Shown here: piece by piece, positions 20 through 56,540 of the stretch | Position numbering within the stretch: position 1 is the stretch's first letter | Layout of the letters: the number at the start of each line of letters is the position of its first letter | Assembly (NCBI RefSeq): GCF_004010195.1 | Contig: NC_057718.1 | Span: forward strand, 49,749,239 to 49,813,238 | Length of the DNA stretch: 64,000 nucleotides | Source: Chiloscyllium plagiosum | Lineage: Eukaryota | Reading direction: 5' to 3' | Notes under the pieces: generated by a model | Told to the model about the DNA's origin: nothing | Databases searched by the model: none | The model's input: the letters and a program-made list of their open reading frames with translations, nothing else | Program-made: the position numbers and the translations under genes

Positions 20-1075
20 TTATACAGAATAGAAACAGACCCTGCAATTCAACTCATCCATGCCAACCAGGTTTCACAAACCGAACAAGTCTAATTTGTC
101 TGTATTTGATACACATTTGACTTTCTAAACTTTTGCTATCCATGTACCTGTCCAAATGCCTTTTAAATGTTGCAATTGTATCTGCCTCTACCACTTCCTC
201 TAGCAGCTCATTCCCTACATGAACAACCCTCTGTGTGAAAATGTTGCCCCTCAGGTCCCTTTTAAATCTTTCCCCTCTCATCTTAAATCTAGGCCGTAGT
301 TTGGGACTCAATTACCCTGGCTATTCACCTTATCTATGTCCCACATGATTTTATAAACCTCTATAGGGACACCCCTCAGTCATCAAGGCTCCAGGGAAAA
401 CAAGTCCCAGCTGATCCAACCTCTACCTATAACTCAAACCCTTCATTCTAGCAACATCCTTGTAATTTGTTTCTGTACCCTTTCAAGTTTAACAACAAAC
501 TTCCCAGAATTATATGTGGTATTCCAAAAGTAGTCTCAACAATGTCTTGTACAGCCGCAATATGATGTCTCAACTCCAACACTCAATGCTCCTACCAATG
601 AAGGAGGAGTTGAGAGGGTAGTGCTGGAAAAGGACAGCAGGTCAGGCAGCATCCGAGGAGCAGGAGAATTGAAGGGCTTATACCTGAAACATTGTATCTG
701 CTCCTCAGTTGCTGCCTTTGCATTTCCACCACCACACCCTCGACTCTTACCAATGAAGGCAAGCATGCCATAGGTTTGCTTCACCACCCTGTCTATCTGT
801 GACTCCACTTTCAAGGAGCTCTGAACCTGCACTCTTAGGTCCCTCTGTTCAACAACATTCCCCAGCGTCCTACCATTAGCTGTGAGTCCTGCCCTGATTT
901 GCCTTACCAAAATGCAACACCTTCACATTTATCTCAATTAAATCCCATCTGCTACTTCTCAAACTATTGGCCCACCTGATCAAGATCCTGTTGTACACTT
1001 TGATAATCTTCTTCACAGTCCACTATATCACCGATTTTGGTGTCGTTTGCAAACTTACTAACGACACTTCCTATA
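20..1075 (-). mobile_element. CR1/HER1-like LINE 3' part, decayed
   Basis: Minus ORF fragments (RGERFKRDLRGNIFTQRVV..., EQRDLRVQVQSSLKVESQIDRVVK) are typical CR1 ORF2 C-terminus. Confidence 0.85.
605..747. mobile_element. Short PLE-derived fold-back element inserted in CR1
   Basis: gcaggtcaggcagcatc arm with a partial inverted arm. TSD taccaatgaagg at 593-604 and 748-759. Confidence 0.75.
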
Positions 1076-4000
1076 TTATCATGACCTGATACACAATCTT
1101 AGCTCCCTGAACTGCTAATCTCTAGGCTGCTGTAATTGCAAAAACAACGGAGTTGAGATCAATGACAGCAATACAGAGGATATACCTGATGCCCTCCGTG
1201 GGGAAGGTTATTGCAATTGTCCTCAAAGTTTGGGGTTACAAGATCAGAGGTAGCAATGGCTTTTGTGTACCTCTGCCTTCTCCCCTTCAGGCCACACTTC
1301 CTTTACATTTTTCTGCGACTGTGTGGAAGGACCTTGCAGGTGGCCATGCAGCTTAGAGTGAACATTGTCCCACTTGATCTCACAGATCTCTCCACTTGCC
1401 ACCAATCACCCCCCACCCAGTCCTCACATTACGTTGGGGATTGTGACAATTTGCAAGCCCAAAACTGGGATTAAAGCGGAGAAAAAGTTTGGGAACCACA
1501 CTCTCTGAAATTATCCTGCAAACTTGATTTGTTTTACCTCTTTCTGTTTTTGCACCCCCAACTGTACCCTTCATTGCCCCTCCTGGTTCTCTCCACAAAA
1601 TGGAGCATTTTGTATTTCTCCCAATTCAATTTAATTTGCCAGTTGTCTGGTTGCTAATTTCCCCTGTCCTTTTAATACCATTGATCAAAATATGCTCCCA
1701 GGTTTTGCAAAATTCTGAATCTGGGTCCTGGGGGAGGGGATATTGGGTTGAACTGTGCAACAGATTAATGAATACAAGTGCTATATTCGTACATAAAATC
1801 ATATCAAGTCTACACCTCACCATATGGTCAGCTTGCTGCCACCATCCACTTTACGTGTAGAAACCCATACAGAGCCTGATTAGCCAAGTGTGTTGAGGAA
1901 ACTCACTTCCTGGTCTAACTAGAAGAGATGGTTGTACTGAACAAGAGGTAGTTCATTGCATGTTAGTAATTAGTTACAAATTTCTTTGATATAATAATGG
2001 ACCTTGCTACAGTTACTTCAGAGTAAGAACCTGATGTTACATTTCACTCAATCATGATCCTCAGCTGTTTTTCCACCAAGTCCAAATGATATCTTCATAG
2101 TTGGTTGGGCTTAAGGCACTCATAATCATTAATCCTTTCAGAACCTTACACCAATATGTAACACCATAGATTGCATGCACATTGTTCGAAGATGCCACAC
2201 CTTTACTCTGTAATTCACTGTACCAACTGCATTTAAACCACTATGATAAAGCAGAGGGTGGCTATTAGGTGACCAGGACTATCAATTGATCACACGGCTC
2301 ATAGCTCGAGTGCACAATTCACATTCACTAGCATTACAAAATAAGAGATAGAAACAGGAGACAATCATTGAAACCCTTTGAGCTTAGTCCAACATTTAAT
2401 AAGTTAACTGCTAATCTTCTGCCTCAATTCCTTTTGCCTGCCTTGCTGCCATAAACCTTGATTCAATTAGTTTCAAAAACCGGTCTCACACTGCACTGGA
2501 TCTCAGCAACTGAGCATCCACAGTTCTTTGCAATAAAGAACTCTTAAAGTTTCACAACCTTTTCAGTGAAGAAATTTCTCCTTCTCTCAATCCTAAAGGA
2601 GCACTCCATTATTCTGAGGTTGTGCTGTCTGGTTCAATTCTCCGTATTGGTCAAGCACATTCTTTTTTTGAAGTTCTAGTGTGGACTTAATCTGCTAACT
2701 TTCATATTGTAAGAAAATCCCCTCATTTAAACAGCCAGTCCAGTGTACCTCTGTTTCGCTCGCTCTCAGCCAGGTACATTCTTCCTTAGATAAAAGGAAC
2801 TAAACTGTATAGTACACCAGGTGAAAGTGAGGACTGCAGATGCTGGAGATCAGAGTCATGATTAGAGCAGTGCTGGAAAAGTACAGCAGGTCAGGCAGCA
2901 TCCGAGGAGCAGTTGTAAAAATAATGTGTAGTCTTTTGTTTCATCACTTTACATTTAAAAATAATATGACTTTTTAAATTGTTTATTATATTTATTATTC
3001 AGAACTGCCCCGTCAGCTAATCCATTCCATTATTTCAGTTTAGGAAGTCACTGAAGTCTTGGTTAAAGCTGAATAAGTAAAAGAGTTGCTCCAAAGGGAA
3101 GTACAATAAGGACTGTTTAAAAACAAATCATCAGTGTGTAAGGAGTTTAATTTAAAAGCTCCAGAACATAAGTGTTTGGTTAAAACCTGAGAAGGTTATT
3201 TGAAGCTAAGAAAATCTCAGCTCAGTTATATGATGAATCAAGATGAGGCTTTCAGATTCACAATCACAACTAAGTCAAACACAAATTGTGATATAGAAGG
3301 TAATTCTCTCTGGTGTGAATACTGTAAAGCAGTGTTTTTGGAATTGGTAAGATTATAATTTACCATGTGTTTTTAAATATGCAAGTTCATGTCTTATCTA
3401 ACTAATTTAGTTTATTCTATGTGATTGCCATTTCTTTGGCACAGAAATTCTCTAAACCTAAATCTGCAGCATTTCATGCTTGTGTTTCAGTAAAAGATAA
3501 ACTTGTTCAAACAAAGAAAAATCTATCAAGCCAGCTTTCAGTCTGGGATCTAACTTTTCCAGAAATAACATCAACAGTGATCATAACAATGTCATCTAAA
3601 GCTTTGCTGCTTGTGTCCTAATTTACACCAGATTCTGTTCACCCATTCCCACTGTAATGATTACACCGCAATAGTACTTGAGAAGCAACTCAAGAAGCAA
3701 CACATTTTTAAAAGTTCACAGCTTTTGTTCTAACCCAGCCTTCATGACCTTGATCATTAATTTGATTCAGCCATTAATAGATGTGCCGTCAATTATTTGG
3801 GACTAGATTTTGGAATTTCCTGAAAATGCCTCTCTGCTTTTCTGCCGCATGTTCTTTCTTAAAACAAAACCTTTAAAGTCTCTTTTTGGCCATCTCTTCC
3901 AATATCACCGATCAAGCGATGTGGCCTAGTGTTATTCTTTTCTTTAGAAAACTTCTGAGAAATACTTTGAGACTTTTATGAAATTAAATGTGCTCGATCA

Positions 4001-4176
4001 ATATAGCTGTTGTGGTTGTTGACACCCAGTTCCCTCCGAATACTAAAATTTCCAAGTCCTTCCATTTAAAAATATCACACATAGTCTAAAAATAGAATTT
4101 CTGAGACCAGTATTTTCACTGAAAAATTAAGGGGTTAATTTTTATATAGTCAGTGGTTTCAGAAAACTCTGTTCAA

Positions 4177-4510
4177 GGGCAGCACAGTGGCTCAGCAGTT
4201 AGCACAGGTCCGGTTCCAGCCTCAGGCGACTGTTTGTGTGGAGTTTGCACATTCTCCCAGTGTCTGCGTGGATTTCCTCCGGGTGCTCTGGTTTCCTCCC
4301 ATAATCCGAAGATGTGCAGGTCAGGTGAAGTGGCTATGCTAAATTGCTTATAATGTTCAGGGATGTGTAGGTTAGATGCATTAGGCAGGGGTAAAAGTAG
4401 AGTAACAGTGTCGGGGGAAATCAGTCTGGGTGGGATACACTTTGGAAGGTCAGTGTGGGCTTGTTGAGCCGAAGGGCCTGTTTCCATGCTGTAGGGATTC
4501 TATGATTCTA
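4177..4510 (+). mobile_element. HE1/V-SINE-like tRNA-derived SINE
   Basis: gggcagcacagtggctcag head, gtgtggagtttgcacattctcc central domain, HER1-like tail with short tandem repeat. Confidence 0.85.
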
Positions 4511-7031
4511 ACCAACCCTGCACTCACAATATGTAGCTCAGAAGTGATCTCTCCTCCCCAAGCAGGCTGAGATTTGATGATTGAAGGCACAAAACCCAAG
4601 TGATCACTTATGCAATGTTCACGTGCGAAATTTACCTCTGCATCATAATTTTCTGTTCATTATTTATCATTCTTTTTCCATTTCTTGATCATTATTATGT
4701 CTAAATTTGTTCCAATCCTTCATCTCTATAATAACTTCATAAACATCTAGGTTTAATTATGTCAGGTCAAGGCATATAGACAATGATTTAATATTCATAA
4801 TCTCATGAAGTCTGGCATTTATAATATGCGGTTGGGGGATTAAGTTTTATGCATGTGTTTTGATTTAGGTTGAAGTGGAGGTATGAATGGAATCGTGTAA
4901 CTTGTTCTGAGGTGCACTGACAGCAAAGGTGGGTAGCTTGGTTGTTAAAGATTAAAATGAATGTAAATAGTCTCACTGTAAGAACCTGCAATATGTTTGC
5001 ACTTGAAGATAATGGCAGAAGAATCTGAGCTGAAAACGGACAGACAGTTAGTCTCCAAATTACCAAGATGATGTTAAAAATGTGAGGCTGCAAATGGTTA
5101 TATTTTAAAATTTAAAGTTAGGATATAAAATACAGTTGGTGCCGAAAGGATAACTGATCAGCATTTCTGTCTGGATACAAAGCCCATGTGATTCATGCTG
5201 TCATTACCTTTGAGAGTAGCTGGGACATAGGATACAATAGTAAGATTATAAGGTTCTGCTAAAAGGTCCCCGAATTCCACAGACAGGGAAATCTGCAACA
5301 ATGTAATACAGGAAGAGATAGTATGCAGAGGCACCAGATCTCTACGGCTCACCACAGAGAAATTTGGGTGGGAGTTTGTGTTCAGACTAAAAAGACCAAA
5401 ATTATAAGGATTTAAAATGAGGCGAGAAGCTTCATCCTGTTTCAGTGAAAGGGAGAATCTGCTGGAAAACTGTCACCATGGCAGACAATTATTGGATCCA
5501 CCAGAAACTTGGAGGTGAAAGAAATGAACGTAAAACCTCAGGAGCTAAGGATTACTTTGGAAGGGTTCAGGAGAAATAAATGTCAACTTATGCTCAGTAT
5601 AAAGTGTAAACATTGAGAAAGACTTACGATTGTGTTAAGCGTAAACGATTAAGTTTACTTTTCTTGCTGAAACTACATGTTGTCTGCAAAGGTAATATTT
5701 AAGCAATGCTGTTTTAGTTTGTTTTTCAGTAAATGCTATGAATCTCAAAATCTTGTTCAAAGTTAGATAATGAGAATGCAGATTTTTAAAAAGAATTATT
5801 GGTCTCGACAGAGATCATAACAAATGTCAAAATATGGTCTGTTTGCAAAACTGGAAATAAAAAGCCACACTGTCTTTAAATTGCCTATTGATTTTCTTCT
5901 GTTCTAGTTAAGGTACAGCACAGTTAAGTATGTGAGCTTTTCACCTCTGATTTTACCGTGTATCATCTTACACTGGTAATGAGAAGATAACAATATCTGA
6001 AACTCAGAAGTGTGCAAGACAACAGTTTTGATTCAATCTAAAATGCAGACATGTTTCATTTTCCCCTAACCCTGGATTACCCTGTGACAGAAGGTAGTTT
6101 GATAAATTTTGGGGCATAGCCTATTTTAAAGCACAATTACAGCTAGAGCTATTAGTCCTTACAGTAATGCAAGCTCTGGCTGTTGCACAGTTAAAATTAA
6201 TGTGTTTGATTCTATTCCTGGAGTGTTGCAATCAAAATGGAAGCCAAATTGCCTTCATTTATCTTTCAGGTATCAATGAAACTACTTAGGCAAGCTAACT
6301 ATTCATCTTATAAACATTTTTGTTCAGTCCTAAGGGACAGCAACAATGGCAGTGATGGTGTGGCTGAATTATTACCCGATTTTATTTCATCCAAGAGATT
6401 AAACTGGCTAAAAGAATCTTGCTTGGCCCTCTTACAAAATGAATTAACTGAATGGACTGACAAAGTTTATTCCATGTCCTCAGAAGAAAGCACTGTGGAA
6501 TGAGTCAATGGAAACTGTCATGTTAAATACATACATGTCAGTATACCCAAGGTACACCATCAGAAATTTCGAAAACCTGAAACCTACAATGAATTTGAAA
6601 GAAAGTTTTCAATTACTGGATAATAATTCTAAAATCAGATCCCTCTTATGAAAACTTGCAGAAAATAATTTTCTTGGAGGAATTTAATAATGGCACACTA
6701 TTTAATCAAGGATCCTGAATTGAGGTACAAACGGTTACAAGAATCAGAATCACTGCTATCATGAGGATTGTGAATATGAAGCAGATTCTTTAATCAAGGA
6801 AGTCTTTTCTCTAAATACTTCCAGAGGTCAGAGGTCAGAGAAGAACAGAAAATCAGAGAACAATAGGAACTGGGGGATACAGAAAGTGAACATGAGAGGA
6901 AAAAATAAACAAATATGAAGGAGAATGGAATAAAATGGACAAACCACTCTCCAACTTTACAAAGTTGAATTCAGGACTTAAGGGTTTGATCAACTTGCTT
7001 GAACATGTGAAAACAGACTGTTGAATATAAA

Positions 7032-7236
7032 AGGTGAAAGTGAGGACTGCAGATGCTGGAGATTAGAGTTGAGAATGTGGTGCTGGAAAGGCACAGCAGG
7101 TCAGGCAGCATCTGAGGAGCAGGAGAGTCGACATTTTGGGCAAAAGCCCTTCATCAGGAAATTTTGCCTCAAATATCGACTCTCTTTCTCCTCAGATGCT
7201 GCCTGACCTGCTGCGCTTTTCCAGCACCACACCCTC
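7032..7236. mobile_element. PLE-derived fold-back element with decayed hammerhead
   Basis: Inverted arms caggtcaggcagcatc / gatgctgcctgacctg. Near-TSD gactgtt..atataaa on both sides. Confidence 0.8.
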
Positions 7237-8228
7237 GACTGTTAGATATAAATACCAACAGGGGACTCTGTTGTTAAAACTATGACTGTGCCCATGGAAG
7301 CTTGTAAGTTTATGTTCAAATAGAACAATCACAGACCAGAATTTTTTTTTGGAAGATTTTTTTTGTTTATAGGGAAAATGACATCTAGATTTTCTAAGAA
7401 ACCAAAAAAAAAGGTATTCTCAGAGTTAATAGCTTCTTAAAAATTTTCCTTTTGGAAGAAGATGGGCATATTTCACCTAAAAGTCCAGTGGTCACCAGAT
7501 TGCTGGTTGCTGGAGGATGTTTAGAGGTTATTTTAGTTAAGATATACTTGCAGAGTAAGTTACTCACAGGTCTCACAATCGGTGGGGAAATTCCAAGTTG
7601 ACCCATGTGGATTTTTTAAAATGGATAATGATATAGCCGGATGTAAGACAGGAACAGCTCATAGAGACTATAGGGACCAGAAAGGTTAACGAAAAAAAAG
7701 AATTCTGCAGAGGTTCACAGAATTGATTAAACTTCTGGAAGAATTCAACAGTTGGAGACAACATCATTAGATTTTATATGGGCTGAGAGAGGAACAGAAA
7801 CAGGGAAAACAGCTAAAATGGAAACCACAGTGACAGAAATGCAGTAGAAGTGCTGTTAGCTGACAATTTCTCCAAAGATTTAAATGGGGACAAGGAATGT
7901 TCTCCTGCTAATAGGGAGCAATCAAAGTTTGCAGAATAGTCACAAGAGATAGGAGTTCCACGCTCCATCATGCCTTAAAGTTATAAGAAATCATATGCAG
8001 AATTTTCTTAAAGCTCTTAACAATGTGGGTATTGGTGGGATATGTGGAATATTCATGCAAGAAATCAAATGAGGCCTTTCTTGATGTCGAAGCAACAAGT
8101 CATATTTTCCAATTAAATGTTGGATTTCTCACCAGTGAGCGGCGTGAGGTCTACCTTCCTAATAACTTAATATCTCCTCATGAATATGCACTCCTCTGTG
8201 CAGCCACCCTTTGAATAGGAACTCATTG

Positions 8229-8374
8229 GAGAAAGTGAGGACTGCAGATGCTGGAGATCAGACCTGAAAATGTCCTGAAGGAGTCCTGAAGAAGGGCTCA
8301 TGCCCGAAACGCCGATTCTCCTTCTCCTTGGATGCTGCCTGACCTGCTGCGCTTTTCCAGCGACACATTTTCAG
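8229..8374 (+). mobile_element. PLE-derived short element with hammerhead-like core
   Basis: 14-bp TSD ataggaactcattg at 8215-8228 and 8375-8388. CTGAAGA-AGGG..CCC-GAAAC at 8286-8310. Confidence 0.85.
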
Positions 8375-9011
8375 ATAGGAACTCATTGCCAAGAATACCT
8401 GACGTGAAACTCCGAACAGGTACCCGTCTGTGGGTCCCCACGAGCACCACCCTATGAGGAAGGAACACCCAGAGTGAGTTCAACATCCCTTATCCCTTTG
8501 TTGGTGCTGAGCAGTGATGACGTGTAGATGTGTGAAGATCCAGCAGACTCAGACTGCTTTGGACTTGGCTCTCCACGGCAGCTGCCAACCCACCTGTAGA
8601 GGCAACCAGACAACAGGGTCTTAAATGTGTGGCTGTAGTCCTACAACCTTTACGTCAGGCTGCCCATTGCCCCTGACAAACCTGTCTCATGGTCCTGTAT
8701 CTGCTTATACATGTTGATAAAATCCTCCATTGGCAACGTCATTGGGCTCCTCCCCTGCCTGATCCTCCAAATGCCAGTGACCTACAGCATTTCTTCCTCA
8801 CCCAGTTGTGGAGATCTTGCAGTGATGTGCTCACCAACACGTGCTTCTGACACTAACCTAGGTTTTAAAAAAACCCACAAAGGTGTCAGTAACTGAGCTA
8901 GTGAGTGCTGCAGCATTGCTGGTTCCTCCCTCTGAGACATCAGAGCTCTTTTCTCCCTCAGAAGTGGAGGAGAACATAGCTGGTGGTGGGGGGAGGTATG
9001 GGGTCCTCTTG

Positions 9012-9505
9012 AGGAGAAAGTGAGGTCTGCAGATGCTGGAGATCAAAGTTGAAACTTTATTGCTGGAACAGCACAGCAGGTCAGGCAGCATCCAGGGAAC
9101 AGGAGATTCGACGTTTCGGGCACAGGCCCTTCTTCAGGAATGAGCAGAGAGTGTTCAGCAGGAGAAGATAAAAGGTAGGGAGGAGGGACTTGGAGGAGGG
9201 GCGTTGGAAATGTGATAGGTGGAAAGAGGTCAAGGTGAGGGTGATAGGTCGGAGTAGGATGGAGGCGGAGAGGTCAACAAGAAGACTGCAGGTCAGGAAG
9301 GCGGAGCCGGGCTGGAGGGATTCGGCTGAGACAAGGTGGGGGGAGGGGGGATGAAGAAACTGGTGAAGTCCAAGTTCATCCCCTGTGGTTGGAGGGTTCC
9401 CAGTCGGAAGATAAGACGCTCCTCCTCCGACCGTCACGTTGTTGTGGTTTGGCGGTGGATGAGTCCAATGACCTGCATATCCTCGGTGGAGTGGGAGGGG
9501 GAGTT
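9012..9505 (-). mobile_element. Penelope-like element 3' end (GIY-YIG tail + terminal repeat)
   Basis: Minus strand reads as the end of the endonuclease domain (...LIFRLGTLQPQGMN...) followed by the terminal repeat. Confidence 0.85.
9106..9141 (-). ncRNA. Minimal type-I hammerhead ribozyme motif (family A)
   Basis: Minus strand AUUC-CUGAAGA-AGGG CCUGUG CCC-GAA-ACGU-C-GAAU: intact core, stem I AUUC/GAAU, palindromic ACGU stem III, GUC cleavage triplet. Confidence 0.75.
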
Positions 9506-10914
9506 AATAATTAACCTCATTAACTGTAGCAACTACACTCTCCCCTCTGCTTTCAAAATCTTCCTCCAAAGCAAACCTTTTAAGCATGCCTTTGGCCAGC
9601 TCTCCAAAATCAGGCTTGGCATCTGTTTTACCACTCAAACTAAGATTTTACTCTTTAACATGTTTCATTAGGTTAGAGTTATTATAGGAATGGAAGTTGT
9701 ATTTGTTAATATATCACTGCAAGTATACTGTTGGCAAGTACTTCCATTTTCATTTCTTGTTTTGAATGTAACATCAATGACTGATTCATTTCTGAAGTTT
9801 GACCACGATAGAAGTGCTATTTCTTACTGAATTTCTCAATATTAACCTAGAGGGGGGAAATTGCGGTCCTTGAAGAAGGAGGCCATCTGTGTTGTACGTA
9901 TTGACCACAGACAACGTGGACCTCATGCTCATGTCTGCGGAAGACATAGGGAGAAGGTCCTAAAACTGAGAGAAGTGATGGCATGTTACCATTAAATGCA
10001 CAGGGTGAGGGTTGTGGAAAGTGGTCAGGGGGGTGGGGTAGATGATGGCATGTACTCTGGTGGAAAAGCGGTTATTGCATCTTTCTTCTGCACTGCTCAG
10101 TATTTCACCAGACCATGGGACTGTACTGACTCAGGGGCAACCTCAGACCAGGTTGGAAGGTGGCGTGACCTCCTCTTGGAAGAGGACGCGATTCCATTGT
10201 AACCACCCCATGCAACAGGACCTCTTGTCCCCATCTACAAAGCAGAGCATGGAATTCCCCTTTGCAGCCATATCATGGCATCCAACAATGCAGGGCAGCT
10301 CTGGATAGCTAGCGCCTGAATGGATGCATGGCAGCCCTTTTAAATATGGCACCCAGTGCCATGGATGCAGGAATCCTCTGGCTGTGTTGAGTATTTGCAG
10401 CAATGGCAAGTGGTAGAAACGAGCTAGCATTGGATGCGGTGGAAAAGTGCTATAAGGGGACAGTAGGTCATTAATGAGGTGAATTTGGGACAATTTCATG
10501 AGCAATTGCACTTATTAGGCCTTGGTGAGAAAAACCCTTCATGAAGCTCCATAAAAATGGCTCTTCACCAAAATATATTAAGATTCAGCCCTGTGAGACT
10601 TACTGTGGAAGTAAAAGATCTTCCAAAATCTAGAAGCAAACAGTGGTCAGCATAGAGGTCTTCACAGAACTCTTCCCAATCATAACACATCATACATTAA
10701 TCCAGCATTAACTGCCAACCCTGAGGGCAAATAGGACTGAGCAACAAAATGCTAACCTAGCCAGCAATGCCCACACCTCATTAAAACAAACCTTTGATAT
10801 AGTCTGATAAGGGAGATTGCTAACATAATGTCTCAACAAATAAGTGGCCAACGTTTCAAACTCTAAGAAAAATGTTGTTGATTTTTCAAAAGCTTAATCG
10901 TATTGTGTGTGCGT

Positions 10915-11565
10915 TGAGTCATACAGCATATAAACAGACCCTTCGGTCCAACTAGTCCATGCCAACTACGTTCCCAAACTAAACTAGTCACACTGGCCTA
11001 CTCCTGGCCCCTATCTCTCCAAACCTTTCCTATTCATGTACTTATCTAAATGGCTTTTAAACATTGTAACTGTCCATGCATCCACCGCTTCCTCTGGCAA
11101 TTCATTCCACACATAGAACATAGAACAATACAGCGCAGTACAGGCCCTTCGGCCCTCAATGTTGCGCCGATCCAAGCCCACCTAACCTACACTAGCCCAC
11201 TATCCTCCATATGCCTATCCAATGCCCGCTTAAATGCCCATAATGAGGGAGAGTCCACCACTGCTACTGGCAGGGCATTCCATGAACCACATGAACCAGT
11301 GTAAAAATGTTGCCCCTCAAGTTCTTTTTAAAACTTTCTCCTTGCATCTTAAAAATATATCCCCTAGTTTTGAACTCCCCTACCCTAGGGAAAAGACCCT
11401 TGCTATTCACTTTATGCTCTTCATGGTTTTATAAATTTCTATCAGGTCACCCTCAACCTCCTATGCTTCAGTGAAAGGTGTCCCAGCCTATTTTTGTAGC
11501 TCAAACCTTCCATTTCTAGCAACATCCTGGAAAGTCTTTTCTGAACCTTCTCCAATTTAATAATA
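10915..11565 (-). mobile_element. CR1/HER1 3' fragment with a nested second CR1-type tail (~11112-11290)
   Basis: Same 3' tail as the element at 20-500; absent from the duplicate copy. Confidence 0.8.
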
Positions 11566-12382
11566 TCTGAATGTTTCAACTTGAACACAGCAAGTGTTTC
11601 ACAATCTCAATATAGCTCAGACATTGAAATAATATCAAGGACTAATGACAATTGTTTAAATGCTTATGAATTAGGTTAATAATATCTGAACTGTTTAAAA
11701 TATAATTTATTACAAATTAGCCACAGTGCAGCAGGTGGAACAATTTGGCCAGTTTCAGCTCAATAACTTTTTGAATTTAAACAAATATACAATCAGTGAT
11801 AATATGAACACTCTCCAATTCCCCTTGAAAAAAATACTGAGAGCTGAACACATCAATTCTTTTATGCATTTGCAAAATAGAACTCTTCATAACAAAAAGC
11901 TAGTGCCAGAAACAAGCACCAATCTTACTGTAGGGCTGCCATCAAGTGGTCAATTGCGTTAATCATAAAACTTGATAAAAATGACTCTTTGCCAAAATAT
12001 AGCAAGATTCATCCCTGCATGACTTCTTGTGTTGGTTATCTTTCAAAAAGAGAAGGAAAGAATGGTCAGCCTGGGGGTGTTCCCAGATCTCTCCCCATCC
12101 ATAACACATCAGACATCAATCTAGCATTAACTGCCCATCTTGACAGCAAATAGGTTTCAACCACAAAACGCTAGCCTAGCCAGCGATGTCCACATCTCAG
12201 GAACAAACACATTTTTAAGAATCCTTTGATAGTCTGATAAGGGAGATTGCTAACATAACATTTCAACAAACGTCACAAAGTGGCTGAAGTTTCAAACACT
12301 AAGAAAAATGTAGTTGATTTTTCAGAAAACTAATCATATTGTGCGTGAGCTCTGAATGTTCCAACCTGAACAACAGCAAGTT

Positions 12383-12677
12383 GGGCGGCACGGTGGCTAG
12401 CACTGCTGCCTCACAGCACCTGAGACCCGGGTTCAATTCCCGCCTCAGGCGACTGACTGTGTGGAGTTTGCACGTTCTCCCCGTGTCTGCGTGGGTTTCC
12501 TCCGGGTGCTCCAGTTTCCTCCCACAGTCCAAAGATGTGCAGGTCAGGTGAATTGGCCACGCTAAATTGCCCGTAGTGTTAGGTAAGAGGTTAATGTAGG
12601 GGTATGGGTGGGTTGCGCTTCGGCGGGTCGGTGTGGACTTGTTTCCACACTAAGTAATCTAATCTAATCTAATCTAA
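12383..12677 (+). mobile_element. HE1-like SINE, young (CpG retained)
   Basis: tRNA-like head with ggttcaattcc box B, V-SINE-like core, (aatct)n tail. Confidence 0.9.
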
Positions 12678-15479
12678 AAAAAAGTGTTTCACAATCCCAA
12701 TATAAATCAAACACTGAAATAATGACAAGGATTGATGATGATTTTTGGAAGCATTTATGAATTCTGTTAATAATAGTTGAATTGTTTAAAACATAAATTA
12801 TTACAAATTAGCCACAGTGCAGCAGATGGAATGTTTTGGGCCAGTTTCTGCTCAATAACTACTTCTGAATTTAAACACAAATACCATCCATATGGAATGT
12901 CCTCCAGATCCCCTTCAAAAAAATGTACATTACTAAAAGCTGAACACATCATTTTTTAAGCTAGTTTAGAAAATACAATTCTCCATAATATAAAGTCAGT
13001 GCGAGAAATAAATCCTAATCTCATTGTATGGCTGCCATCAAGTGGTCAATTGCATTCATTACAAGCATCATTAGAATCAAATGATGCTTAATGATCAGGC
13101 ATGTGGAACAAAGGTCACCTTAAACCCTTGTACTCATCAAAAGAACATCATAACTACAGTCATTTTATACGCTTAACATATTCATCTAAGTGACGGTTTT
13201 CTATTTTCTGGACTGATGCTCACTGTTTTCCATTAGGCAGTTTCCGAAACTCCACAGCAGCATCTGGGGAATGTGTAGATCAGAATTTCAAAATCAATTT
13301 CCAGTTCATAGAATGAAGATTAATTAGGTTCATCTAAAAGAAAATTCAGAGCTGATATCTTTGGGCTGTAAAATTAATATACAACAATTAAATTGTATTT
13401 AAGTCTACATTCTGTTTCTAAATAGTATCTATCCGCTTTGAAAGCCTGGTTTATGTATAAATATTAATGAGGTAACTATTGCTGTTTTACTGCAATGAGG
13501 CACCTCAGAACAAAGGTCCATAATGGTGGTCAAGGAGTTTGTATCATTGATTTTCCCCGTGCTTTTGAATTCCCAATCCTCAGTTCTGTCATGTGTAAGG
13601 AAGAAATCAAAAATCTCTGCAGAAGATCAGAAGGCTAACACATTGTTCAGTGCTGAATGTGCACAGGTTTATAAAGAGATCATCTATACTAATAACACTG
13701 TACTCATGGGCCAAGGCAAAGAAGAAACAAATAATCGGTAGTTTATTCAAAAAGACGACAGGGAATTTAATTTGGAAAACCAAAATTTAAAATGGCAATT
13801 TTCATTTGTAAAACTTTTTTGACCGTGGAAAAAGTCCAAGGTGTTTTCTCATGTATGACCAAGAAAACCGTCTGAGGATTAAAGAAAGAAATATTAAGTA
13901 GCGTGATGAAAACCTTAAAGAATTGGACTTGAGGATCACTACAAGGTGGAAATGAGGATCGAAGCTAAGTGCATGAAATTCAATGCATGCACCTTATAGA
14001 AGTGAAGGTTTCGTCATCAGTAGTACTTCAAAGGGAACTGAAATGCACAGAAGACCAAAGTGGGTTTCAGTGGGGAATAGTACAAGGCTTGCGATGGTTA
14101 GATTGAGAGAGATAGCATAAACGCATTTAAATGCTTTAAACTTTGAGAACTAAGGGCCAAAGTGGACCATCAAGCACAAATGTCGTGGAACAGCAAGGCT
14201 GCGAGCCGCATAGAATGTTGGTCAGAGTTAGGCAGAGACAAACTTTGCAGTTTGTATAAGAAAACTGCCAAGTGAACATTCAAATAGTGAAAATCTGAAT
14301 GTGGCCAGGCATGGATTAAAGTTTCAGCACCAGATGGATGGGGTTGGAATACTTTATGGAAGTAATCAATTTCTCTATAGGACAGTGAGTGCGCAGAAGC
14401 TCAGGGTCGAGAAGAAAGTCAAAGTTACAAATGCAATGGGTCAACCTGCGACAATGACCCAAAAAAGGGTGGAGTTTGTGGCAAGGGCACAAAGACTCTG
14501 GTGAGTCCAAAACAATAGCGATGATTGTAGTGTGTGGTAATGTGAGGTATGTAATGGACCTGAGTGATGCTACCATTGAAGTGGCATCCTAATGGTTACA
14601 TGTATCCTCTCAGCTTCTCAGAAAAGCTCCCCACTGAATATTTAGCAGCATTTAAGTCCACAAGAAGTTACTAACCTGATCGACCCCATCAATAAGAAAG
14701 GCTGATATTGGTAGGTGGTCTGCAGTGTCAACACAGTATTTGATTGAGGGAAGGACAGTCAGGACAGGTGAAGTATAAGGTTTCCTTTCTCGGATCAGAT
14801 GAGTTTTCCTGTTCAAAAAGACAAATATAAAGCTGCCTCAGTGACCTGCCCTTGCTGCGGCTCTCGGGGGTTTCTGATGGAAAAAGTGTCACCGTTTGGT
14901 CAACTAGGCGTATAATTTCAATTGCGGTCAGGTTCTAATGCTGTCCTCACTGATTGACACATCTAAAACAGGGGAAAGCTGTTAGTCTGTTTTACTTTTC
15001 CCCCTGCCCACTGAAAGCTGGGAAGACTGGCTTAAGAGAAACATAAGTTTCTTCCCAACTTCTCAATGTTGAACTTGGAGGATAATTTACACCAAACAAG
15101 AGTGAATTTTTGCATCGTTGATTTGTTACAGCACAGAGGTCATCATTTGGTCCATCATGCCTATACCAGGTATTCAAACAAGCATCATTGGTACCAATTT
15201 GTTGCTCCATCCCCATTCCTTGCACACTGCTGCAAGGAACTGTGGTTCAACACAGCAGTTTTGAAAAGTGTAAATTTCTAAACAAACCCATGGAAAGAAG
15301 AAAAAAATGATAGGCTCAAGGGAGATCTCTGGTTTGTGAGTAAGGGTAAAGAATTTCAACTTTCTACTGATCTCCAGTATTCAGTTGATAGGACAAGAGT
15401 AAGGTTAAAATGATTTAAAGTATTTAAAACTGCAGTAAATAAAATAACTTTATTATACTTTTAAGTATGGAAGAGTAGC

Positions 15480-20729: not shown

Positions 20730-20807
20730 TGAGAGAGATTCCAAATATTTAAAAGTTTCGACAATGACTTTTGATTTCTATGAGCTGTACGTGCAGAGTC
20801 CTACAAT

Positions 20808-42993: not shown

Positions 42994-43150
42994 CTTCAGC
43001 TCACCATTAACGTGAAATTAAGCCTGAAAAGTAGAAATCATCTTTAAAAGAAAGAGCCAACATCTGGTTTACTCCAGGTGCCAAATTCAAATAAGGGAAA
43101 GAATAAAAGGACAAAGGTGACAAATCAATGGCTGAAGAGACGGGCATGAT

Positions 43151-43369: not shown

Positions 43370-44074
43370 AAGAGGCGGTGTAATGTTCAAGGATTCAGGT
43401 TTGTGGGATTTCAAATGGGACGAAAAGACCTGTTCAAAAAGGATGAGTTTCACCTGCGCTGGAAAGGAACCAATATCCTAGCGGGAAGAATTGCTAATTC
43501 TATGAAAAGAGACTGTGTACTATCAGAGAAAGGGGGTGGAGGGACCCTAAGTAGCAGAGGAAATAGAAAGATCGATGAGAATGTTTTTTTAGTCTGAAAA
43601 GGACAAGTTAATTAGAAAAGACAGGTAACACCAACTCACAGAATTAAGAATTAAACTGCATTTGTTCAATGCAAGTGCTGTTACAGATAGCACTTAGGGC
43701 ATGTTTAGGAACATGGGATTGGGACATCATAACTATTACAGAATCTTGGCTAAGGCTGGACAGGACTGGAAGCTCAATGTTCCAGGTTTTATGTGCTAAA
43801 GGAGGGATAGACAAAGAGGTAAAAGAGGATGGGGGCGTGGCATTTTTGATAAAGGAAAACATTACTGCTGTAACCAGAGAAGATATTTCCGAAAGACTGT
43901 CTAGTCAAAATAACTACAAATAAAAAAGGTATTGTACAATAGACCCCCCCCCCTTCAGTAGTCAGAGGGAATTTGAGGAACAAATATGCAGAGAGATCTC
44001 AGATACATGTGAATAATAAGGCTGTAATAGTAGATGATTTTAATTTTCCAAACATTAACTGGGACTACCATAGT

Positions 44075-44303
44075 TGAGACAGTGAGGTCTGCAGGTGCTG
44101 GAGATTAGAGCTGAGAGTGTGTTGCTGGAAAAGCACAGCAGGTCAGGCAGCATCTGAGGAGCAGGAAAATCGAAGTTTCAGGTCGGAGTCCTTAATCAGG
44201 AATGCTTCCTGATGAAGGGTTCCGGCTCAAAACATCGATTTTCCTGCAGCCTCAGATGCTGCCTGACCTGCTGTGCTTTTCCAGCAACACACTCTCAACT
44301 GAA
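44075..44303. mobile_element. PLE-derived fold-back element with two opposed decayed hammerheads
   Basis: TSD actaccatagt at 44064-74 and 44304-14; long inverted arms. Confidence 0.85.
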
Positions 44304-45260
44304 ACTACCATAGTGTTCAGGGCTTGGATGGTGAAGAACTTGTTAAATGTGCTCAAGAAAATTTCTTTAACAATATGCAAATGTTCCTATCAGAGAAGAC
44401 GCAAACCTGGACCTTCTCTTGGGTAATAAAAAAGGGCAAGTAACTGAAGTGGTGGTAGGGGAAACACTTTGAATTGAGTGATCATAAATCTATTTGTTTT
44501 AAATAGTTAATGGAAAAGGATAAGCCTTTTATAAAAATTCAAGTTTTTAATTGGAGTAAGGCAAATTTTAATGGTATGAGACAAGAACTTTCAGAAATTG
44601 ATTGGAGAAGACTGTTCACAGGTAAAGGGACATCTGAAAAGGGGAATGCTTTCAAAAGTGTGATAACAAGAGTTCAGAGTCATGACGTCCCTGTTAGAGT
44701 GAAAAGTAAGGCTGGTAGGATGAGAGAACAATGGATGAATAAAGATATTGAGATTTTAGTTAAGAACAAAAAAGAATTATGTTAGATATAAACAACTGGG
44801 TTCAAATGAATCTCTTGAACAGTATAAAGTGTGTAGGGGCATTCTTAAGAGGGAATACAGCAAGACAAAGACAGGATATGAGATGGTCTTGGCAAATAAT
44901 GTTAAGGATAATCCAAAGAGACGCCACAACTACATTAAGAGCAAGACAGCAACGAGGGAAATTACGGCCCCTTAAAGGTCATAGACTGTCTTAGTGTTGA
45001 GCCTCAGGAGTTGGGAGAGACATTAACTGAATATTTCACACTATTTCCTTCTCCACAGTAAAAACTAGAGGCTAGAGAATGCAGGGAAATAAATGCTAAT
45101 GTTTTAAAGACAGCTCACATTACAGAAAAGAAAATGCTGGAAGTATTAGAAAATATAAAAGTAGATAAATCTCCTGGATCTAATCTAGTGTATCCTGGGA
45201 CTTTGTGGGAAGTTAGGGAGGAGGTTGCAGGGCCCCTTACAGAAATATTTGTATCATTCA

Positions 45261-45490
45261 AGGTTTGTGTAAAGATTTGTGGCTTGGGTGCAGGTTGTTG
45301 TGGGTATATTCGCCAAGCTGAGAAGTTGATTTGGGAAGGGCTGCCCCAACAAATTCCAGAAAACACAGTACAGCAGTGCTTCACAGGAGGATCCAAAGCA
45401 CTGAAGATGTCACCCAGACATAGGATGAAACGTCTGCAAATCAACTTCCCAGCTCAGCAAATAAACCCACAATAAACACAAGTGAGGTGC
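45261..45490 (+). mobile_element. Family C short element with hammerhead core at 45398-45437
   Basis: GCA-CUGAAGA-U-GUC...GAU-GAA-ACGU-C-UGC. Terminal inverted arms gctgagaagttgatttg / caaatcaacttcccagc. Confidence 0.7.
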
Positions 45491-45496
45491 CGAATG

Positions 45497-45806
45497 ATTA
45501 GATTAGATTACCTACAGTGTGGAAACAGGCCCTTCGGCCCAACCAGTCCACAATGACCCTCCGAAGAGTAACCTATCCAGACCCACTTTCCTCTGACTAA
45601 TGCACCTAACACTATTAGCAATTTAGCATGGCCAATTCACCTAACCTGCACATCTTTGGACTATGGGAGGAAACTGGAGCACCTGGAGGAAACGCACGCA
45701 GACACGGGAGGGATCGTGCAAAATCCACACAGACAGTTGCCCGAAGCTGGAATCGAACCTGGGACCCTGCTGCTGTGAGGCAGCAGTGCTAACCAATGAG
45801 CCCACA
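45497..45806 (-). mobile_element. HE1-like SINE
   Basis: (attag)n tail plus V-SINE-like core on the minus strand. Confidence 0.85.
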
Positions 45807-46523: not shown

Positions 46524-47052
46524 TATGGGCACCCGCATGGGCCCCAGCTATGCCTGCCTCTTCGTAGGATATGTGGTAGTCCCAGTTGAGTGTGTTTTGC
46601 TGGAAAAGCACAGCAGGTCAGGCAGCATCCCGGTTGCCCGAGATAGAAATGGAGAGGCCTAGGAAGGGGACGGAGGAGTCTGAGACGGTCCAGGTAAATT
46701 TGAGGTCAGGATGGAATGTGTTGGTAAAGTGGATGAACTGTTCAACCTCCTCGTGGGAGCACAAGGCAGCGCCGATACAGTCATCGATGTAGCGGAGGAA
46801 AAGATGGGGGGGTGGTGCTAGTGTAGCTGCGGAAGATATCCTTCCACCTATCGCATTTCCAACACCCCTCCCCCAAGTCCCTCCTCCTTACCTTTTATCT
46901 TAGCCTGCTGGACACACTTTCCTCATTCCTGAAGAAGGGCTCATGCCCGAAACGTCGATTCTCCTGCTCCTTGGATGCTGCCTGACCTGCTGCGCTTTTC
47001 CAGCAACACATTTTCAGCTCTGATCTCCAGCATCTGCAGTCCTCACTTTCTC
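46524..47052. mobile_element. Rearranged Penelope-like insertion with intact hammerhead core at 46929-46956 (+)
   Basis: MGTRMGPSYACLF RT piece (+), inverted RT piece (YIDD), terminal repeat. TSD catcaaatata at 46513-23 and 47053-63. Confidence 0.85.
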
Positions 47053-48993
47053 CATCAAATATAGAGAGGGTGGTTAAGAAGGAGTTTAGCATGCTCGCTT
47101 TCGCTACTCAGACCTTTGAGTACAAGAGTTGGGATGTTATGTTGAGGTTATATGGGATGTTGGTGGGGCCTCAATTGGAATACCGTGACTAGTTTTGGTA
47201 GCCTTGTTTTAGGAAGGATATTATTAAGTTGGAGAGTTCAGAAGAGGATGTTGCTGCGAACGGAGGATTTCAGTAATAAGCAGAGTCTAGGGTTCATTTC
47301 ACTGGAGCTTAGCAGGTTGAGAAGTGACCCTATAGAGTTTTATAAAATCAAGAGAGGTATAGATAGGGTGAATGGCAGATGTCTTTTCTCTAGGATAGGG
47401 GATTTCACGACAAGGAGGCACATTTTTAAGGTGACAGGAGAAAGATTTTAAAAAGGACATGATTTTTTTTAAAAAACAGTGTGGTTCGTGAGTGGAATGA
47501 ACGTACAGAGGAAGTGGTGGATGCAGATACAGTTACAATGTTTAAAAGACGTTTAGATATGTACATAAATAAGAAATGTTTGGAGAGATATCGGCCAGGA
47601 GCAGACTGGATGGAAATGTTTAATTTAGGATTATGGTCGGTATGATCTGTTTGGACTGAAAGGTCAGTTTCCATGCTTTATGATTCCATGACTTACTTAA
47701 AGTCTCAAAGTCGTAATCATCAAAAGGCCAGAATCCGAGTTTTAACTTTTCCTGGATTTAGACTTAAAACAAATTTCGTTCTCACAAGAAGCAAAATACA
47801 GACTTAAGTAACAATTTTGGAAGTAACATTAAACTGCTTGTAACTGTTTCCAAAGGGTGTTGGTAAAGTGGATGAACTGTTCAACCTCCTCGTGGGAGCA
47901 CAAGGCAGCGCCGATACAATCGTCGATGTAGCGGAGGAAAAGGTGGGGGGTGGTGCTAGTGTAGCTGCGGAAGATATCCTTCCACCTATCGCATTTCCAA
48001 CGCCCCTCCCCCAAGTCACTCCTCCCTACCTTTTATCTTAGCCTGCTTGGCATACTTTCCTCATTCCTGAAGAAGGGCTCATGCCCAAAACGTCAATTCT
48101 CCTGCTCCTTGGATGCTGCCTGACCTGCTGCGCTTTTCCAGCAACACATTTTCAGCTCTGATCTCCAGCATCTGCAGTCCTCACTTTCTCCATCAAATAT
48201 AGAGAGGGTGGTTAAGAAGGAGTTTAGCACGCTTGCCTTCGCTGCTCAGACCTTTGAGTACAAGAGTTGGGATGTTATGTTGAGGTTATACGGGATGTTG
48301 GTGGGGCCTCTATTGGAATACCGTGACTAGTTTTGGTAGCCTTGCTTTAGGAAGGATATTATTAAGTTGGAGAGTTCAGAAGAGGATGTTGCTGGGAACG
48401 GAGGATTTCAGTAATAAGCAGAGTCTAGGACTCTTTTCACTGGAGCTTAGCAGGTTGAGAAGTGACCCTATAGAGTTTTATAAAATCAAGAGGGGTATAG
48501 ATAAGGTGAGTGGCAGATGTCTTTTCTCTAGGATAGGGGATTTCACGACAAGGAGGCATATTTTTAAGGTGACAGGAGAAAGATTTTAAAAAGGACATGA
48601 TTTTTTTTTTAAAACAGTGTGGTTCATGAGTGGAATGAACGTCCAGAGGAAGTAGTGGATGCAGATACAGTTACAATGTTTAAAAGACGTTTAGATATGT
48701 ACATAAATAAGAAATGTTTGGAGAGATATCGGCCAGGAGCAGACTGGATGGAAATGTTTAATTTAGGATTATGGTCGGTATGATCTGTTTGGACTGAAAG
48801 GTCAGTTTCCATGCTTTATGATTCCATGACTTACTTAAAGTCTCAAAGTCGTAATCATCAAAAGGCCAGAATCCGAGTTTTAACTTTTCCTGGATTTAGA
48901 CTTAAAACAAATTTCGTTCTCACAAGAAGCAAAATACAGACTTAAGTAACAATTTTGGAAGTAACATTAAACTGCTTGTAACTGTTTCCAAAG
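46718..48993. repeat. Recent ~1.14-kb tandem duplication (46718-47855 / 47857-48993)
   Basis: Two nearly identical colinear copies of PLE end + CR1 tail + unique flank. Confidence 0.93.
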
Positions 48994-53345: not shown

Positions 53346-55282
53346 GTGCATGTTGAACATAAGCTCCCTACTTTTCAATTCTGCCCCTCTAGAAATGAAG
53401 TCTAGTGCTTGACGAGTGGCTTTATTGCCCTGTTTGTTTGCAGCAGTACACTTGGGGTTTGGCATGTTTCTACTCCGAGAGCTCTTTACTCCCCTATTCA
53501 CCCAGACCTGCACTTTTCAAATAATAAGTGGACTCCGCTACAGACAACTAAATCTAGTGTACAGGTGCAAAGAGAATCGAAAAAAGGACATGATGTTATT
53601 GGTCTACAGAGCCTTGGTCAGGATCCACCTGGTTTTACCTATCGAATGGGGGCTAGTTAGTTCAGTTGGCTAGACAGCTATTGAGAGTGCAGCATGATGC
53701 CAACAGCACGGGTTCAATTACTGCAGTGGCTTAGCTTCTCACGCTCTCTCCTTCTCAACTTCTCCCCTTGCCTATGGTTTGGCAACCCTTAGTTTAAACC
53801 ACCACCAGTCATCCCTCTAACAGCCAACAGCCTGGTCCAGTATAAACTGCAATGACTTTATCTTTACACTAGTCTTAACAAGTTTACCTCACAGACTGAC
53901 CAGAATTTTAACTAGGGTTTGAAGCACTAAACGAACAATAATTGAATAAAGTCATTGCTGTTGGAGTGTGGAAGCTTTAAAAAAACTGAGGAATTCAACA
54001 GGTTAAAAGGTTACATGTCTGTTTTTATTGATAATTACTTTCAGTCAGCCATACCATTATAAAATCTGATCAGACATTCCAGAAGGAAAAACAAAATCAT
54101 CTAGTACAGTATTATAAAAAGACAACTAAAAAAAATAGAAACTGTAGCAAACATTGACAGAAACCCCAAGGCAAATGTAATGCCTCACTGAGTAAAACCC
54201 CTGGATATCAAGCCCAGACTGTTCCCAGAGTCATCATAAAAGTTAAAAGTTTTATCAAAGTCCCCAATTTATGCCTTATAGGCTCAGATTAGGTTTCTGC
54301 ACTTAACAAAAACTATTAATTATAAATAGACTGCTTCAGCAATAGATAAACAAATATAAACTGCCTGCACATAATTCTACTAGCTAAACTTCTAACACAC
54401 AAAACAAAGAGGGTTATGGGTAGAGTGAAGAAAACTTGGGAAATGAAGTCCCCAGGATTTGATGCAGTGTAAACTTTGTTTCCAAACTCCTTTAGTTCTG
54501 ATTTTTTTCCTTCACGTTCTTCTATTTTGCAGAAGACACACAGTCACTGGTTCACAAATTATAATGTCTCTGACTTATTGGTGCAACACAACAGCTTACA
54601 AGACAATCAGCTTTATTTAGCTTCAGGTATCTTCATAAGAGGAGACACAGACTTTCTTGCTCAGAGGCAACTCGTGCCCTACAAGACTCACTTAGTATCA
54701 GAGATGAATGGCAATAGTGCAAGTTAGTGGAGGTGAGATATATATGAGGAAGTACAGGGATGAATAAATTGGAGGTGGAGAAAACCTAGAAGATTACAGA
54801 CTGTAAACGAACGCAATGTCCTGTTGTGCGTTTGCATCAAATAGTTTTTTAGTGTTGAAAATAATAGGCAAAGGCATGTCAAACCCTTTCCAAAACTATT
54901 TGTTTTCCAGGCAATAAGAAACAAAATATTAAACTTTACGACTGAATATCATCCATGACTTCTTCGCTACTTTGGTTTTAATTTATTTTTAACAAGAGAA
55001 CGCATCAAAATCACAAAGTCTGCAAAAGCTAAACAAATACCGAGTTTTCCCAATTAAGGTCTCCACGCACCTTCTGATCTCTTATCCCCTCCTCGGGTTC
55101 ATTTAGTCATAATACCGAAAGATTTTCCTCCGGAGTGACCAAATATTTAGGGCAGTCTGCTCCACATCAATTACCTTCCTAACTCTCCAAGCTCAGGATT
55201 CGACTCCCAATCCAGGCCACGTTCCATTCCCCGGGCAACATTCCACTCCCCAGCACAACGTTCTACTCCCAGTGAAAAGATA

Positions 55283-55380
55283 CATTTACTTCCCTCGTGC
55301 TGACAATCTCAAACTCCTTCCGGGGTCATGTTGAACGTTGCTGTACTTTCTCTTAAAGCGACTACGTGGTTTTGGGATTA
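55283..55380 (-). promoter_or_regulatory. Candidate TAF1A promoter / non-coding first exon
   Basis: Locally CpG-richer unique sequence with an ETS/GABP-like CCGGAAG on the minus strand (~55317-55323) and a donor-like |GTAAATG at 55289-55283. The first coding exon has an acceptor, so an upstream exon must exist. Confidence 0.3.
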
Positions 55381-55977
55381 TTGATTGTTCCCGTTGATTT
55401 ACGTGGATACTGACTGGAAATGTTTATTCCATGATCTGGAATAAAGCTTCGGGATATTATCTTCCAACAGTTAAAAAAACAACTGTGGGTTTTGGTCAAA
55501 TGCAATTACAGCTACTGCATAGTCGCAGCTTTAACGTGTTTAAGGTTGACATTTATCGTCTTGTGTAGAGTTTCATTCAAATAAACATAACGGTTACTTA
55601 GAGTGATGTATATTTTTAAAGTGGAATTACTGCTTATCTATTTGAACTTGTAGAAATAAGCCCATGTTATTTTCAGGGGTAAAATGCTTCGTGTGAATTT
55701 TACATAAAATTAATAAGACTTGGTAGGCAGACACATAATAGACTCCTTACACAACTATTTACTTTCCAGACAGTAAGAAACAAAATATTGAGCTGTACGA
55801 TTGATATACCCAATCGGCAGGTCTGGCAACATTTTAGAGGAAAAAAGATCCTCTCGACCTGATGAGAATTTCCATGAGTTTTCACAGCGCTTTTCAGATT
55901 TCCAGCATCTTCAGTGCTCTGCTTTTGTTTGAGTGGTACGTCACGCAGATACGTTGGTATGTCATATATTTTAATGC

Positions 55978-56168
55978 CTAGGAGAAAGTGAGGACTTCAG
56001 ATACTGGAGATCAAAGTCGAAAAGTGGAGCAATGGAAAAGCACAGCATCGAGGAGCCGGAGAGTCGACGTTTCGGCCTGACGGGCTTATGCCCTAATCGT
56101 CGACTCTCCTGCTCCTCAGATGCTGCTTGACCTGCTGTGCTTTTCCAGCGCCACACTTTTCGAATTAC
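55978..56168. mobile_element. PLE-derived fold-back element
   Basis: TSD attttaatgc at 55968-77 and 56169-78; inverted arms around deleted hammerheads. Confidence 0.8.
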
Positions 56169-56318
56169 ATTTTAATGCACGTTGTGGAATTTCTTGCCTT
56201 ACGTGATATACCAGACTTAAATAAATGCGGAACACTGCATATGCTGCAAGTCTGAAAAGTACCGCAAAAACTCATGGAAATACTCCTCTAAAATGTTGCC
56301 AGACCCGGTAAGTTCCAT

Positions 56319-56540
56319 TAAGAGAAAGTGAGGACTGGAGATCAGAGTCGAGTGTGTGGTGCTGGAAAAGCACAGCCGGTCAGGCAGCATCCGAGAAGCA
56401 GGAGAATTGATGTTTCGGGAATAAGCCCTTCATCAGGAACGAGCTGATGATGGAAGGGTTTATGCCCGAAACGTCGATTTCCGTGTTCTTGGATGTTGCC
56501 TGAGCAGCTATGCTTTTCCAGCACCACACTCTTGCTGCTG
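56319..56540. mobile_element. PLE-derived fold-back element with two opposed hammerhead-like cores
   Basis: TSD agttccat at 56311-18 and 56541-48; cores at 56409-56436 (-) and 56444-56475 (+). Confidence 0.8.

Follow-up and report, generated by a model that had tools for sequence, protein, structure and literature searches.

Relation to Described Penelope-Like Elements

Penelope-like elements (PLEs) that carry an endonuclease (EN+) follow a canonical order of reverse transcriptase (RT), endonuclease and hammerhead-bearing repeat (PMC8557442). Their insertion units show an adjacent inverted and truncated copy, a 30–40 bp tail at one end and target-site duplications (TSDs) of 8–10 bp (PMC8557442, PMC3846280), and the origin of PLE tandem and inverted inserts has been called still undefined (PMC8557442). 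Here we analyze eight short insertions (E1–E8) in a stretch of 64,000 nt from Chiloscyllium plagiosum (NC_057718.1), hereafter the window, which by their sequence are terminal-repeat pieces of EN+ PLEs. They are ordinary, known PLE insertion debris and not a new self-copying ribozyme element, and we consider it probable (roughly 80%) that the full PLE protein (RT plus GIY-YIG) produced each of them once, as a dead-on-arrival insertion in which two primed cDNAs were joined.

As in the published EN+ units (PMC8557442, PMC3846280), the arrangement is head-to-head with a tail on one arm and a minimal hammerhead, the TSDs here measuring 8–16 bp, and in long copies of the window RT and then GIY-YIG-type coding sequence lies beside the repeat. 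In contrast to those units, the eight insertions are devoid of any coding sequence, the density is very high (16 tail-bearing insertions were counted in the 64 kb), and the inner ends are concentrated immediately upstream of the hammerhead, a feature undescribed in the available portions of these two papers. Dual minimal hammerheads on opposite strands, about 100–700 bp apart and tied to truncated PLEs, are described in Schistosoma (PMC4209133, Cervera and de la Pena 2014), whereas here the motifs are closer together, delimited by TSDs and found in a shark-like vertebrate genome.

The most informative biochemistry comes from a lizard element, Poseidon PAc of Anolis carolinensis, for which both target strands are cut and extended in vitro, reverse transcription starts at two internal sites bounding the tail, RNA reaching nt 172 of the open reading frame is required with priming at 111–118, and hammerhead mutants leave insertion unchanged (PMC11167929). 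The insertions of the window share with PAc a tail delimited by two classes of 3′ end and templates that run through the hammerhead cut, but they belong to another species and probably to another clade, and inverted inserts were not reconstituted in that study.

Metazoan non-LTR retrozymes are likewise non-coding, with a type I hammerhead, PLE-repeat ancestry and long TSDs (PMC7229834; bioRxiv 10.64898/2026.07.22.740005). According to the same sources, they consist of head-to-tail repeats with same-strand, mostly canonical hammerheads and produce unit-length and circular RNA. In contrast, the eight insertions are single inserts with decayed minimal motifs, head-to-head where two-armed, whose ends would correspond to priming sites. 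A further comparison is offered by LINE-1 twin priming, in which two target nicks and two joined cDNAs yield an inverted, TSD-flanked insert. E3 has the same non-overlapping layout, whereas the arms of most copies here overlap, which implies that the same stretch of RNA was copied twice, either from two RNAs or by strand displacement.

The Eight Short Insertions

Arm positions are counted from the predicted hammerhead cut, between 46956 and 46957, of a linear and little decayed reference terminal repeat (46835–47053, plus strand), itself part of a 470-nt inverted insertion (46584–47053) that includes an RT fragment. All eight insertions align to PLE terminal-repeat sequence only. TSDs are present in 8/8: that of E2 has 16 bp with two mismatches, and those of the other seven are exact (12, 14, 16, 14, 11, 10, and 8 bp). 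In a control of 386 random sites matched in length, a duplication of at least 8 bp occurred at 10 sites and one of at least 10 bp at a single site. The sequence-only reading, which had delimited eight repeat-only insertions, each with its own TSD and one of these imperfect, is thereby borne out in coordinates and duplications alike.

The alignment to the reference shows seven of them to be two-armed and head-to-head. E1 (605–747; TSD 593–604 and 748–759) is a fold-back with a tail on neither arm, its arms starting at about -2 and about -23. In E2 (7032–7236; TSD 7016–7031 and 7237–7252) the tail arm spans -31 to +97, antisense on the plus strand, and the short arm about -13 to +54. E3 (8229–8374; TSD 8215–8228 and 8375–8388) joins an inverted tail-only arm (+52 to +96) to a body arm (-30 to +61), with an 8-nt duplication at the junction. 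E4 (31362–31426, plus strand; TSD 31346–31361 and 31427–31442) is a single linear 3′ end, +32 to +95, without a hammerhead. The tail arm of the fold-back E5 (37486–37669; TSD 37472–37485 and 37670–37683) spans -34 to +95 and its short arm aligns from +12 to +58, although by eye the latter starts at -33 and has lost its hammerhead through a microhomology deletion. E6 (44075–44303; TSD 44064–44074 and 44304–44314) has arms of -33 to +96 and -31 to +63, E7 (55978–56168; TSD 55968–55977 and 56169–56178) a tail arm of -10 to +97 and a short arm from about -23 (or -29) to +59, and E8 (56319–56540; TSD 56311–56318 and 56541–56548) arms of -35 to +96 and about -28 to +54. E7 is nested in an older inverted PLE-end structure; the whole region 55820–56548 forms a nest of PLE insertions, with E8 at its edge and a long copy 175 nt beyond.

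Folding against 40 shuffles per insertion gave long hairpins in six of the eight (z from -6.6 to -17.8), so that the earlier description of most as hairpins applies to these six and not to E3, which is inverted with hardly overlapping arms (z -0.3), nor to the linear E4 (z +1.3). The description of opposed hammerheads was likewise correct in part: remnants occur on both strands, near full-length in E6 and E8 and partial in E2 and E7, but it was overstated, as 0/8 insertions contain two intact motifs. Both cores of E6 are mutated, while in E8 one hammerhead carries a 2–3 nt insertion and the second has lost the ACGT palindrome and is mismatched in stem II. The core is intact in the linear copies at 9012 and 46835. 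An Rfam search returned no match at gathering score, and a relaxed scan revealed a minimal hammerhead core that has stem II but in which an ACGT palindrome replaces helix III, a form described for PLEs, where it cleaves poorly and requires a same-strand partner (PMC4209133). In the reference repeat this minimal type I motif, typed after the same source, occupies 46929–46956 on the plus strand. From their sequence, the hammerheads are apparently passengers in the fold-backs.

Outer Ends and Proposed Mechanism

In six of the seven two-armed copies, exactly one arm carries the tail and ends at +95 to +97, the other arm ending at +54 to +63. To view the repeat family more widely, public contigs of two organisms (X1 and X12) were aligned to the linear copy at 80% likeness; the loose-end figures given here come from 24 of 1018 rows and the joint figures from 15 of 124 joints, some joints being left out for volume. 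On the 3′ side, loose ends are most frequent at 47053, with 2233 records in X1 and 2349 in X12, and a second class lies at 47010 and 47014 (765 and 538 records in X1, 802 and 548 in X12). The tail, a concept taken from PMC11167929, is thus the stretch 47015–47053 (plus strand) between the two classes (47010–47014 and 47053). Taken together, the two outer-end classes follow the published pattern of an inverted repeat plus one tail (“inverted pLTR plus one tail”) and match the two known reverse-transcription start sites. Inverted joints that connect the short end to the tail end, end to end, also occur, at 47014/47053, in 23 and 22 contigs (X1 and X12); joints of this kind in 47010–47054 perhaps reflect insertion at the border of body and tail, or tandem fold-backs.

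In the mechanism that we propose, the PLE endonuclease would nick both target strands 8–16 bp apart, giving rise to the TSD, and both nicks would prime reverse transcription within the terminal repeat of a PLE RNA, the far start site yielding an arm with the tail and the near one an arm without it. Both cDNAs would stop early, near the RNA 5′ end or before it, and would be joined end to end into a head-to-head insert. Double priming in a single event is the inferred step. A transcript across the resulting fold-back would have its ribozyme, the one sense hammerhead, paired with its own complement and would miss what follows the tail in the full RNA; it should be neither cleaved nor recopied. 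As minimal motifs also depend on a partner on the same strand, remobilization is unlikely.

In 13 of the 16 tail-bearing insertions, the arm with the tail has its sense orientation on the minus strand, the strand of the host gene described below (p 0.02, orientation judged by eye), and in an RNA run (X21) the sense-to-antisense ratio is 2.3:1 over the tail and 1.5:1 over the body. A bias of insertion or of selection is possible for this strand lean.

Inner Ends and Junctions

All seven head-to-head junctions in the window differ, with 0–10 nt of overlap or filler, as the sequence-only reading had claimed. The inner ends are clustered all the same, which that reading did not remark: 9 of 19 window arms start within -35 to -23, a concentration as extreme in 4 of 20000 uniform simulations, and loose 5′ ends in the contigs peak at 46924 and 46925 (405 and 550 in X1, 537 in X12). 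The loose letters before 46925 are AT-rich and host-like; those at 46924 are C-rich, like the region upstream of other subfamilies, and part of the peak is therefore an alignment edge. Joints of the E3 type recur in the contigs (46925/47014 and 46934/47018). Since independent events have repeatedly put inner ends at the same site, shared breakpoints alone are no proof of self-amplification, and clustering the copies by breakpoint, which had been put forward as the discriminating test, is confounded by this concentration upstream of the hammerhead in both window and contigs.

The clustered ends coincide with an initiator-like motif (46923–46929, plus strand, its A being nucleotide 46925) that closely precedes the hammerhead core and is a candidate RNA 5′ end. 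Scanned for with the general initiator consensus, the motif is found at that place in 4/4 long copies. An internal promoter with an initiator is described for Penelope of D. virilis (PMC2377424). It is possible, though we put it forward tentatively, that many arms end near -33 by run-off, the template being an uncut RNA whose 5′ end lies at this motif. In the literature searched, which mostly excluded subscription papers, no link was found between a PLE inner-end cluster and an initiator or RNA 5′ end. A splice acceptor as the cause of the -33 end was rejected, as no AG precedes 46925.

One head-to-head joint, 46926/46958, has an arm 2 nt from the cut and reaches a summed depth of 286.5 in two X1 contigs. 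Multi-copy joints of this kind may stem from duplication of the locus, from repeated events at fixed ends of the RNA, or from a small master. We regard as rather doubtful a more specific proposal, in which the clustered -33 end would be the PLE RNA 5′ end and this -31/+2 joint either the cDNA of an uncut RNA joined to that of a hammerhead-cut one or a small, self-amplified fold-back subfamily. Sister arms are 71–88% alike and rank first or second closest to each other in 8 of 12 comparisons, a degree of likeness that would fit one source and old age.

Retrozyme Features and RNA Data

None of the eight insertions contains head-to-tail repeats with a same-strand hammerhead per unit. Head-to-tail tandems may exist elsewhere in the repeat family, as at least four go-back joints, each in 4–7 contigs, were seen in X1 DNA. 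A start at the ribozyme cut is compatible with 1 of 14 arms (in E1), the arms mostly running through the cut site, and no peak of loose ends at 46957 appeared among the contig rows considered.

The RNA data consist of one poly(A) single-cell run (X21), of which 3908 of 12,955,460 records aligned to the repeat, on both strands, with 94% continuing into unlike sequence. This library, which is unsuited to circles, displayed no peak of read beginnings or ends and no reads in the joints considered. The pattern fits passive presence in host transcripts. A look for A-to-I editing in this run, as advised in the sequence-only reading, gave a lean in that direction at 11 of 16 listed A>G or T>C sites (p 0.11; among 40 of 248 rows, against DNA that is not locus-matched). 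A>G changes at 46985 and 47023 are strand-skewed 2.6–3.1-fold and T>C changes at 47011 and 47013 are also skewed, but other changes reach a skew of about 2-fold too. These observations give a weak hint of editing in copies of the repeat family.

Alternative Explanations

The sequence-only reading had left two options, ribozyme-processed short RNAs mobilized by PLE enzymes or truncated and inverted PLE insertion products, and the TSDs, the geometry, the two 3′ end classes and the recurrence of the same pattern in long copies agree with the latter. The former, a short non-autonomous fold-back, retrozyme-like or SINE-like and perhaps released by its hammerhead, amplifying itself with PLE enzymes, is highly improbable. 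PLE-derived retrozymes and non-autonomous PLEs do exist (PMC8557442, PMC7229834, bioRxiv 10.64898/2026.07.22.740005), the joint 46926/46958 amounts to about 19 single-copy depths in X1 and its neighbor to about 9, the junction of E1 would allow for an arm that begins at the cut, and the part from hammerhead to short end is about 8–10 times deeper in the contigs than the upstream repeat. Nevertheless, the geometry is head-to-head, the ribozymes are decayed and the arms run through the cut instead of starting there; the best head-to-head joint by contig count, among the joints listed, is seen in 6 contigs against more than 2200 tail-end records; and the unique junctions, the lack of head-to-tail repeats and of paired intact motifs among the eight, and the poor cleavage of partnerless minimal hammerheads (PMC4209133) all run counter to self-amplification. 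Arms 12–29% apart give no sign of a young master, and the multi-copy joint, absent from the X12 joints listed, could lie in a duplicated region. The same dead products could also have gained their second arm by self-priming (snap-back) of one cDNA or antisense template, with the endonuclease trimming one end at the near start site, as has been put forward for head-to-head PLE junction palindromes (PMC3846280), the tail being attributed to endonuclease resolution (PMC8557442). In four of the six two-armed, tail-bearing copies (E2, E5, E6, and E8) the short arm begins no further upstream than the inner end of the tail arm, as snap-back requires, and these four are compatible with either process. 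We hold snap-back to be unlikely as the general route, since the near end is a reverse-transcription start site shown in vitro (PMC11167929) and since the short arm of E3 and E7 extends further upstream than the tail arm, so that one cDNA cannot have templated both; these two copies, whose tail arm stops short of its partner at the junction, need two priming events. Finally, longer inverted PLE insertions might have lost their centers afterward. Long palindromes are unstable, long head-to-head copies are present in the window and E5 has an internal microhomology deletion, but random central deletion would predict neither that both arms end within about 13 nt of one site nor the host-like loose letters before 46925 in the contigs, and this origin is very unlikely.

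Several observations weigh against one-off double priming. E1 has no tail, the 47014/47053 joints are not accounted for by a simple double-priming model, and the in vitro data concern a lizard Poseidon element, another family than the shark repeat. The uniform null behind the inner-end cluster is arbitrary, its arm count leaves out three long copies and one duplicate, and the contig 5′ peak is in part an artifact that arises where other subfamilies diverge, upstream of 46925; the initiator pattern, moreover, is degenerate and occurs one to five times per upstream region. Several joints are multi-copy (46926/46958 at about 19 single-copy depths, 46959/46926 at about 9, and 46925/46967 at about 8, relative to the mean depth of eight listed pieces), contig joints are seen without their flanks and stand in place of a genome-wide list of full elements with flanks, and sister arms rank only 4th to 15th in 4 of the 12 comparisons.

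Parentage of the Repeat and Other Insertions in the Window

In the long copies of the window, the same kind of repeat adjoins decayed RT motifs and a GIY-YIG-type motif, and their succession of RT, endonuclease and hammerhead repeat is the order of canonical EN+ PLEs. Pfam gave no matches for six long decayed frames nor for the RT piece. Atlas look-alikes of the RT-side piece carry PF26215 (score 0.97), a domain that we take to be linked to PLEs. A decayed Cys-type linker before the endonuclease of the copy at 18649 hints at the Neptune clade. Exact-motif scans returned no matches in either of two viral-contig scans or in GTDB genomes, and matches at five metagenome loci were discarded as chance, their likeness being confined to the 22–25 nt motif.

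The head-to-head layout is also found at larger size and with coding sequence: at 18649–20030, with decayed GIY-YIG-type coding sequence on both arms; at 60085–61730, in a diverged family, with endonuclease and terminal repeat on one arm and the RT region on the other; and at 46584–47053. It extends to other families as well, with a fold-back of a different PLE family at 43144–43367, missed by the sequence-only reading (each strand bears a hammerhead motif or its remnant, one arm is extended, and the 11-bp TSD contains one mismatch), an old fold-back of a diverged family at 24575–24752 (10-bp TSD with one mismatch), and two of a third PLE-end family at 45258–45472 and 58716–59170, the latter interrupted by a younger insertion of 255 nt that has a 9-bp TSD of its own. 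Therefore, the eight insertions are the short end of a continuum and not a family of their own. Linear copies lie beside them: a 5′-truncated one of 1.8 kb (56716–58537, minus strand) with RT region, assembly gap, terminal repeat and short end, flanked by a 14-bp TSD; one at 9012–9506 (minus strand) with endonuclease end, terminal repeat, intact hammerhead core and tail; and a tail-only insertion of 58 nt (62416–62473, plus strand) with a 10-bp TSD. A search for TSDs at 2819, 9012, 18649, 45258, and 46584 found none.

The piece splitting the fold-back at 58716 (58852–59115) is an inverted copy of neighboring LINE-like sequence at 59369–59605. A tandem duplication of about 1138 bp (46807–48993, 96%) includes a PLE terminal repeat and LINE-like sequence; it may be genuine or an assembly haplotype. 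A tRNA-like SINE family that resembles the shark HE1 SINE has copies at 4205–4502, 12375–12677, 45496–45802, and 59172–59270. A perfect 24-bp tandem array of about 25 copies (21037–21643) adjoins an assembly gap, and old local direct duplications of sequence that does not look repetitive, 75–87% alike and 0.9–1.6 kb apart, occur at 10539–13059, 26719–28512, and 54865–55804.

Host Gene

A TAF1A-like gene spans 23889–41263 on the minus strand, as indicated by eight open stretches, among 188 frames, that match PF14929 in exon order in relaxed scans; a strict exon scan gave none. E4 and E5 lie in introns of this gene, E5 about 180 nt from an exon. Of the intronic double-stranded RNA (dsRNA) hairpins proposed earlier, the intronic placement thus stands for two of the eight insertions, one of them a hairpin. 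Hairpins of dsRNA inside host transcripts are plausible.

Implications

Thousands of TSD-delimited short insertions of this kind constitute a dataset in which counts of junction classes could separate double priming, snap-back and 5′ run-off. If the clustered -33 end were the RNA 5′ end and the -31/+2 joint a product of one uncut and one cut RNA, these insertions would be a fossil record of double priming on two templates and of hammerhead cleavage in vivo, the latter not shown by RNA-seq for the lizard element. For the host, the hairpins may frequently supply its transcripts with long dsRNA.

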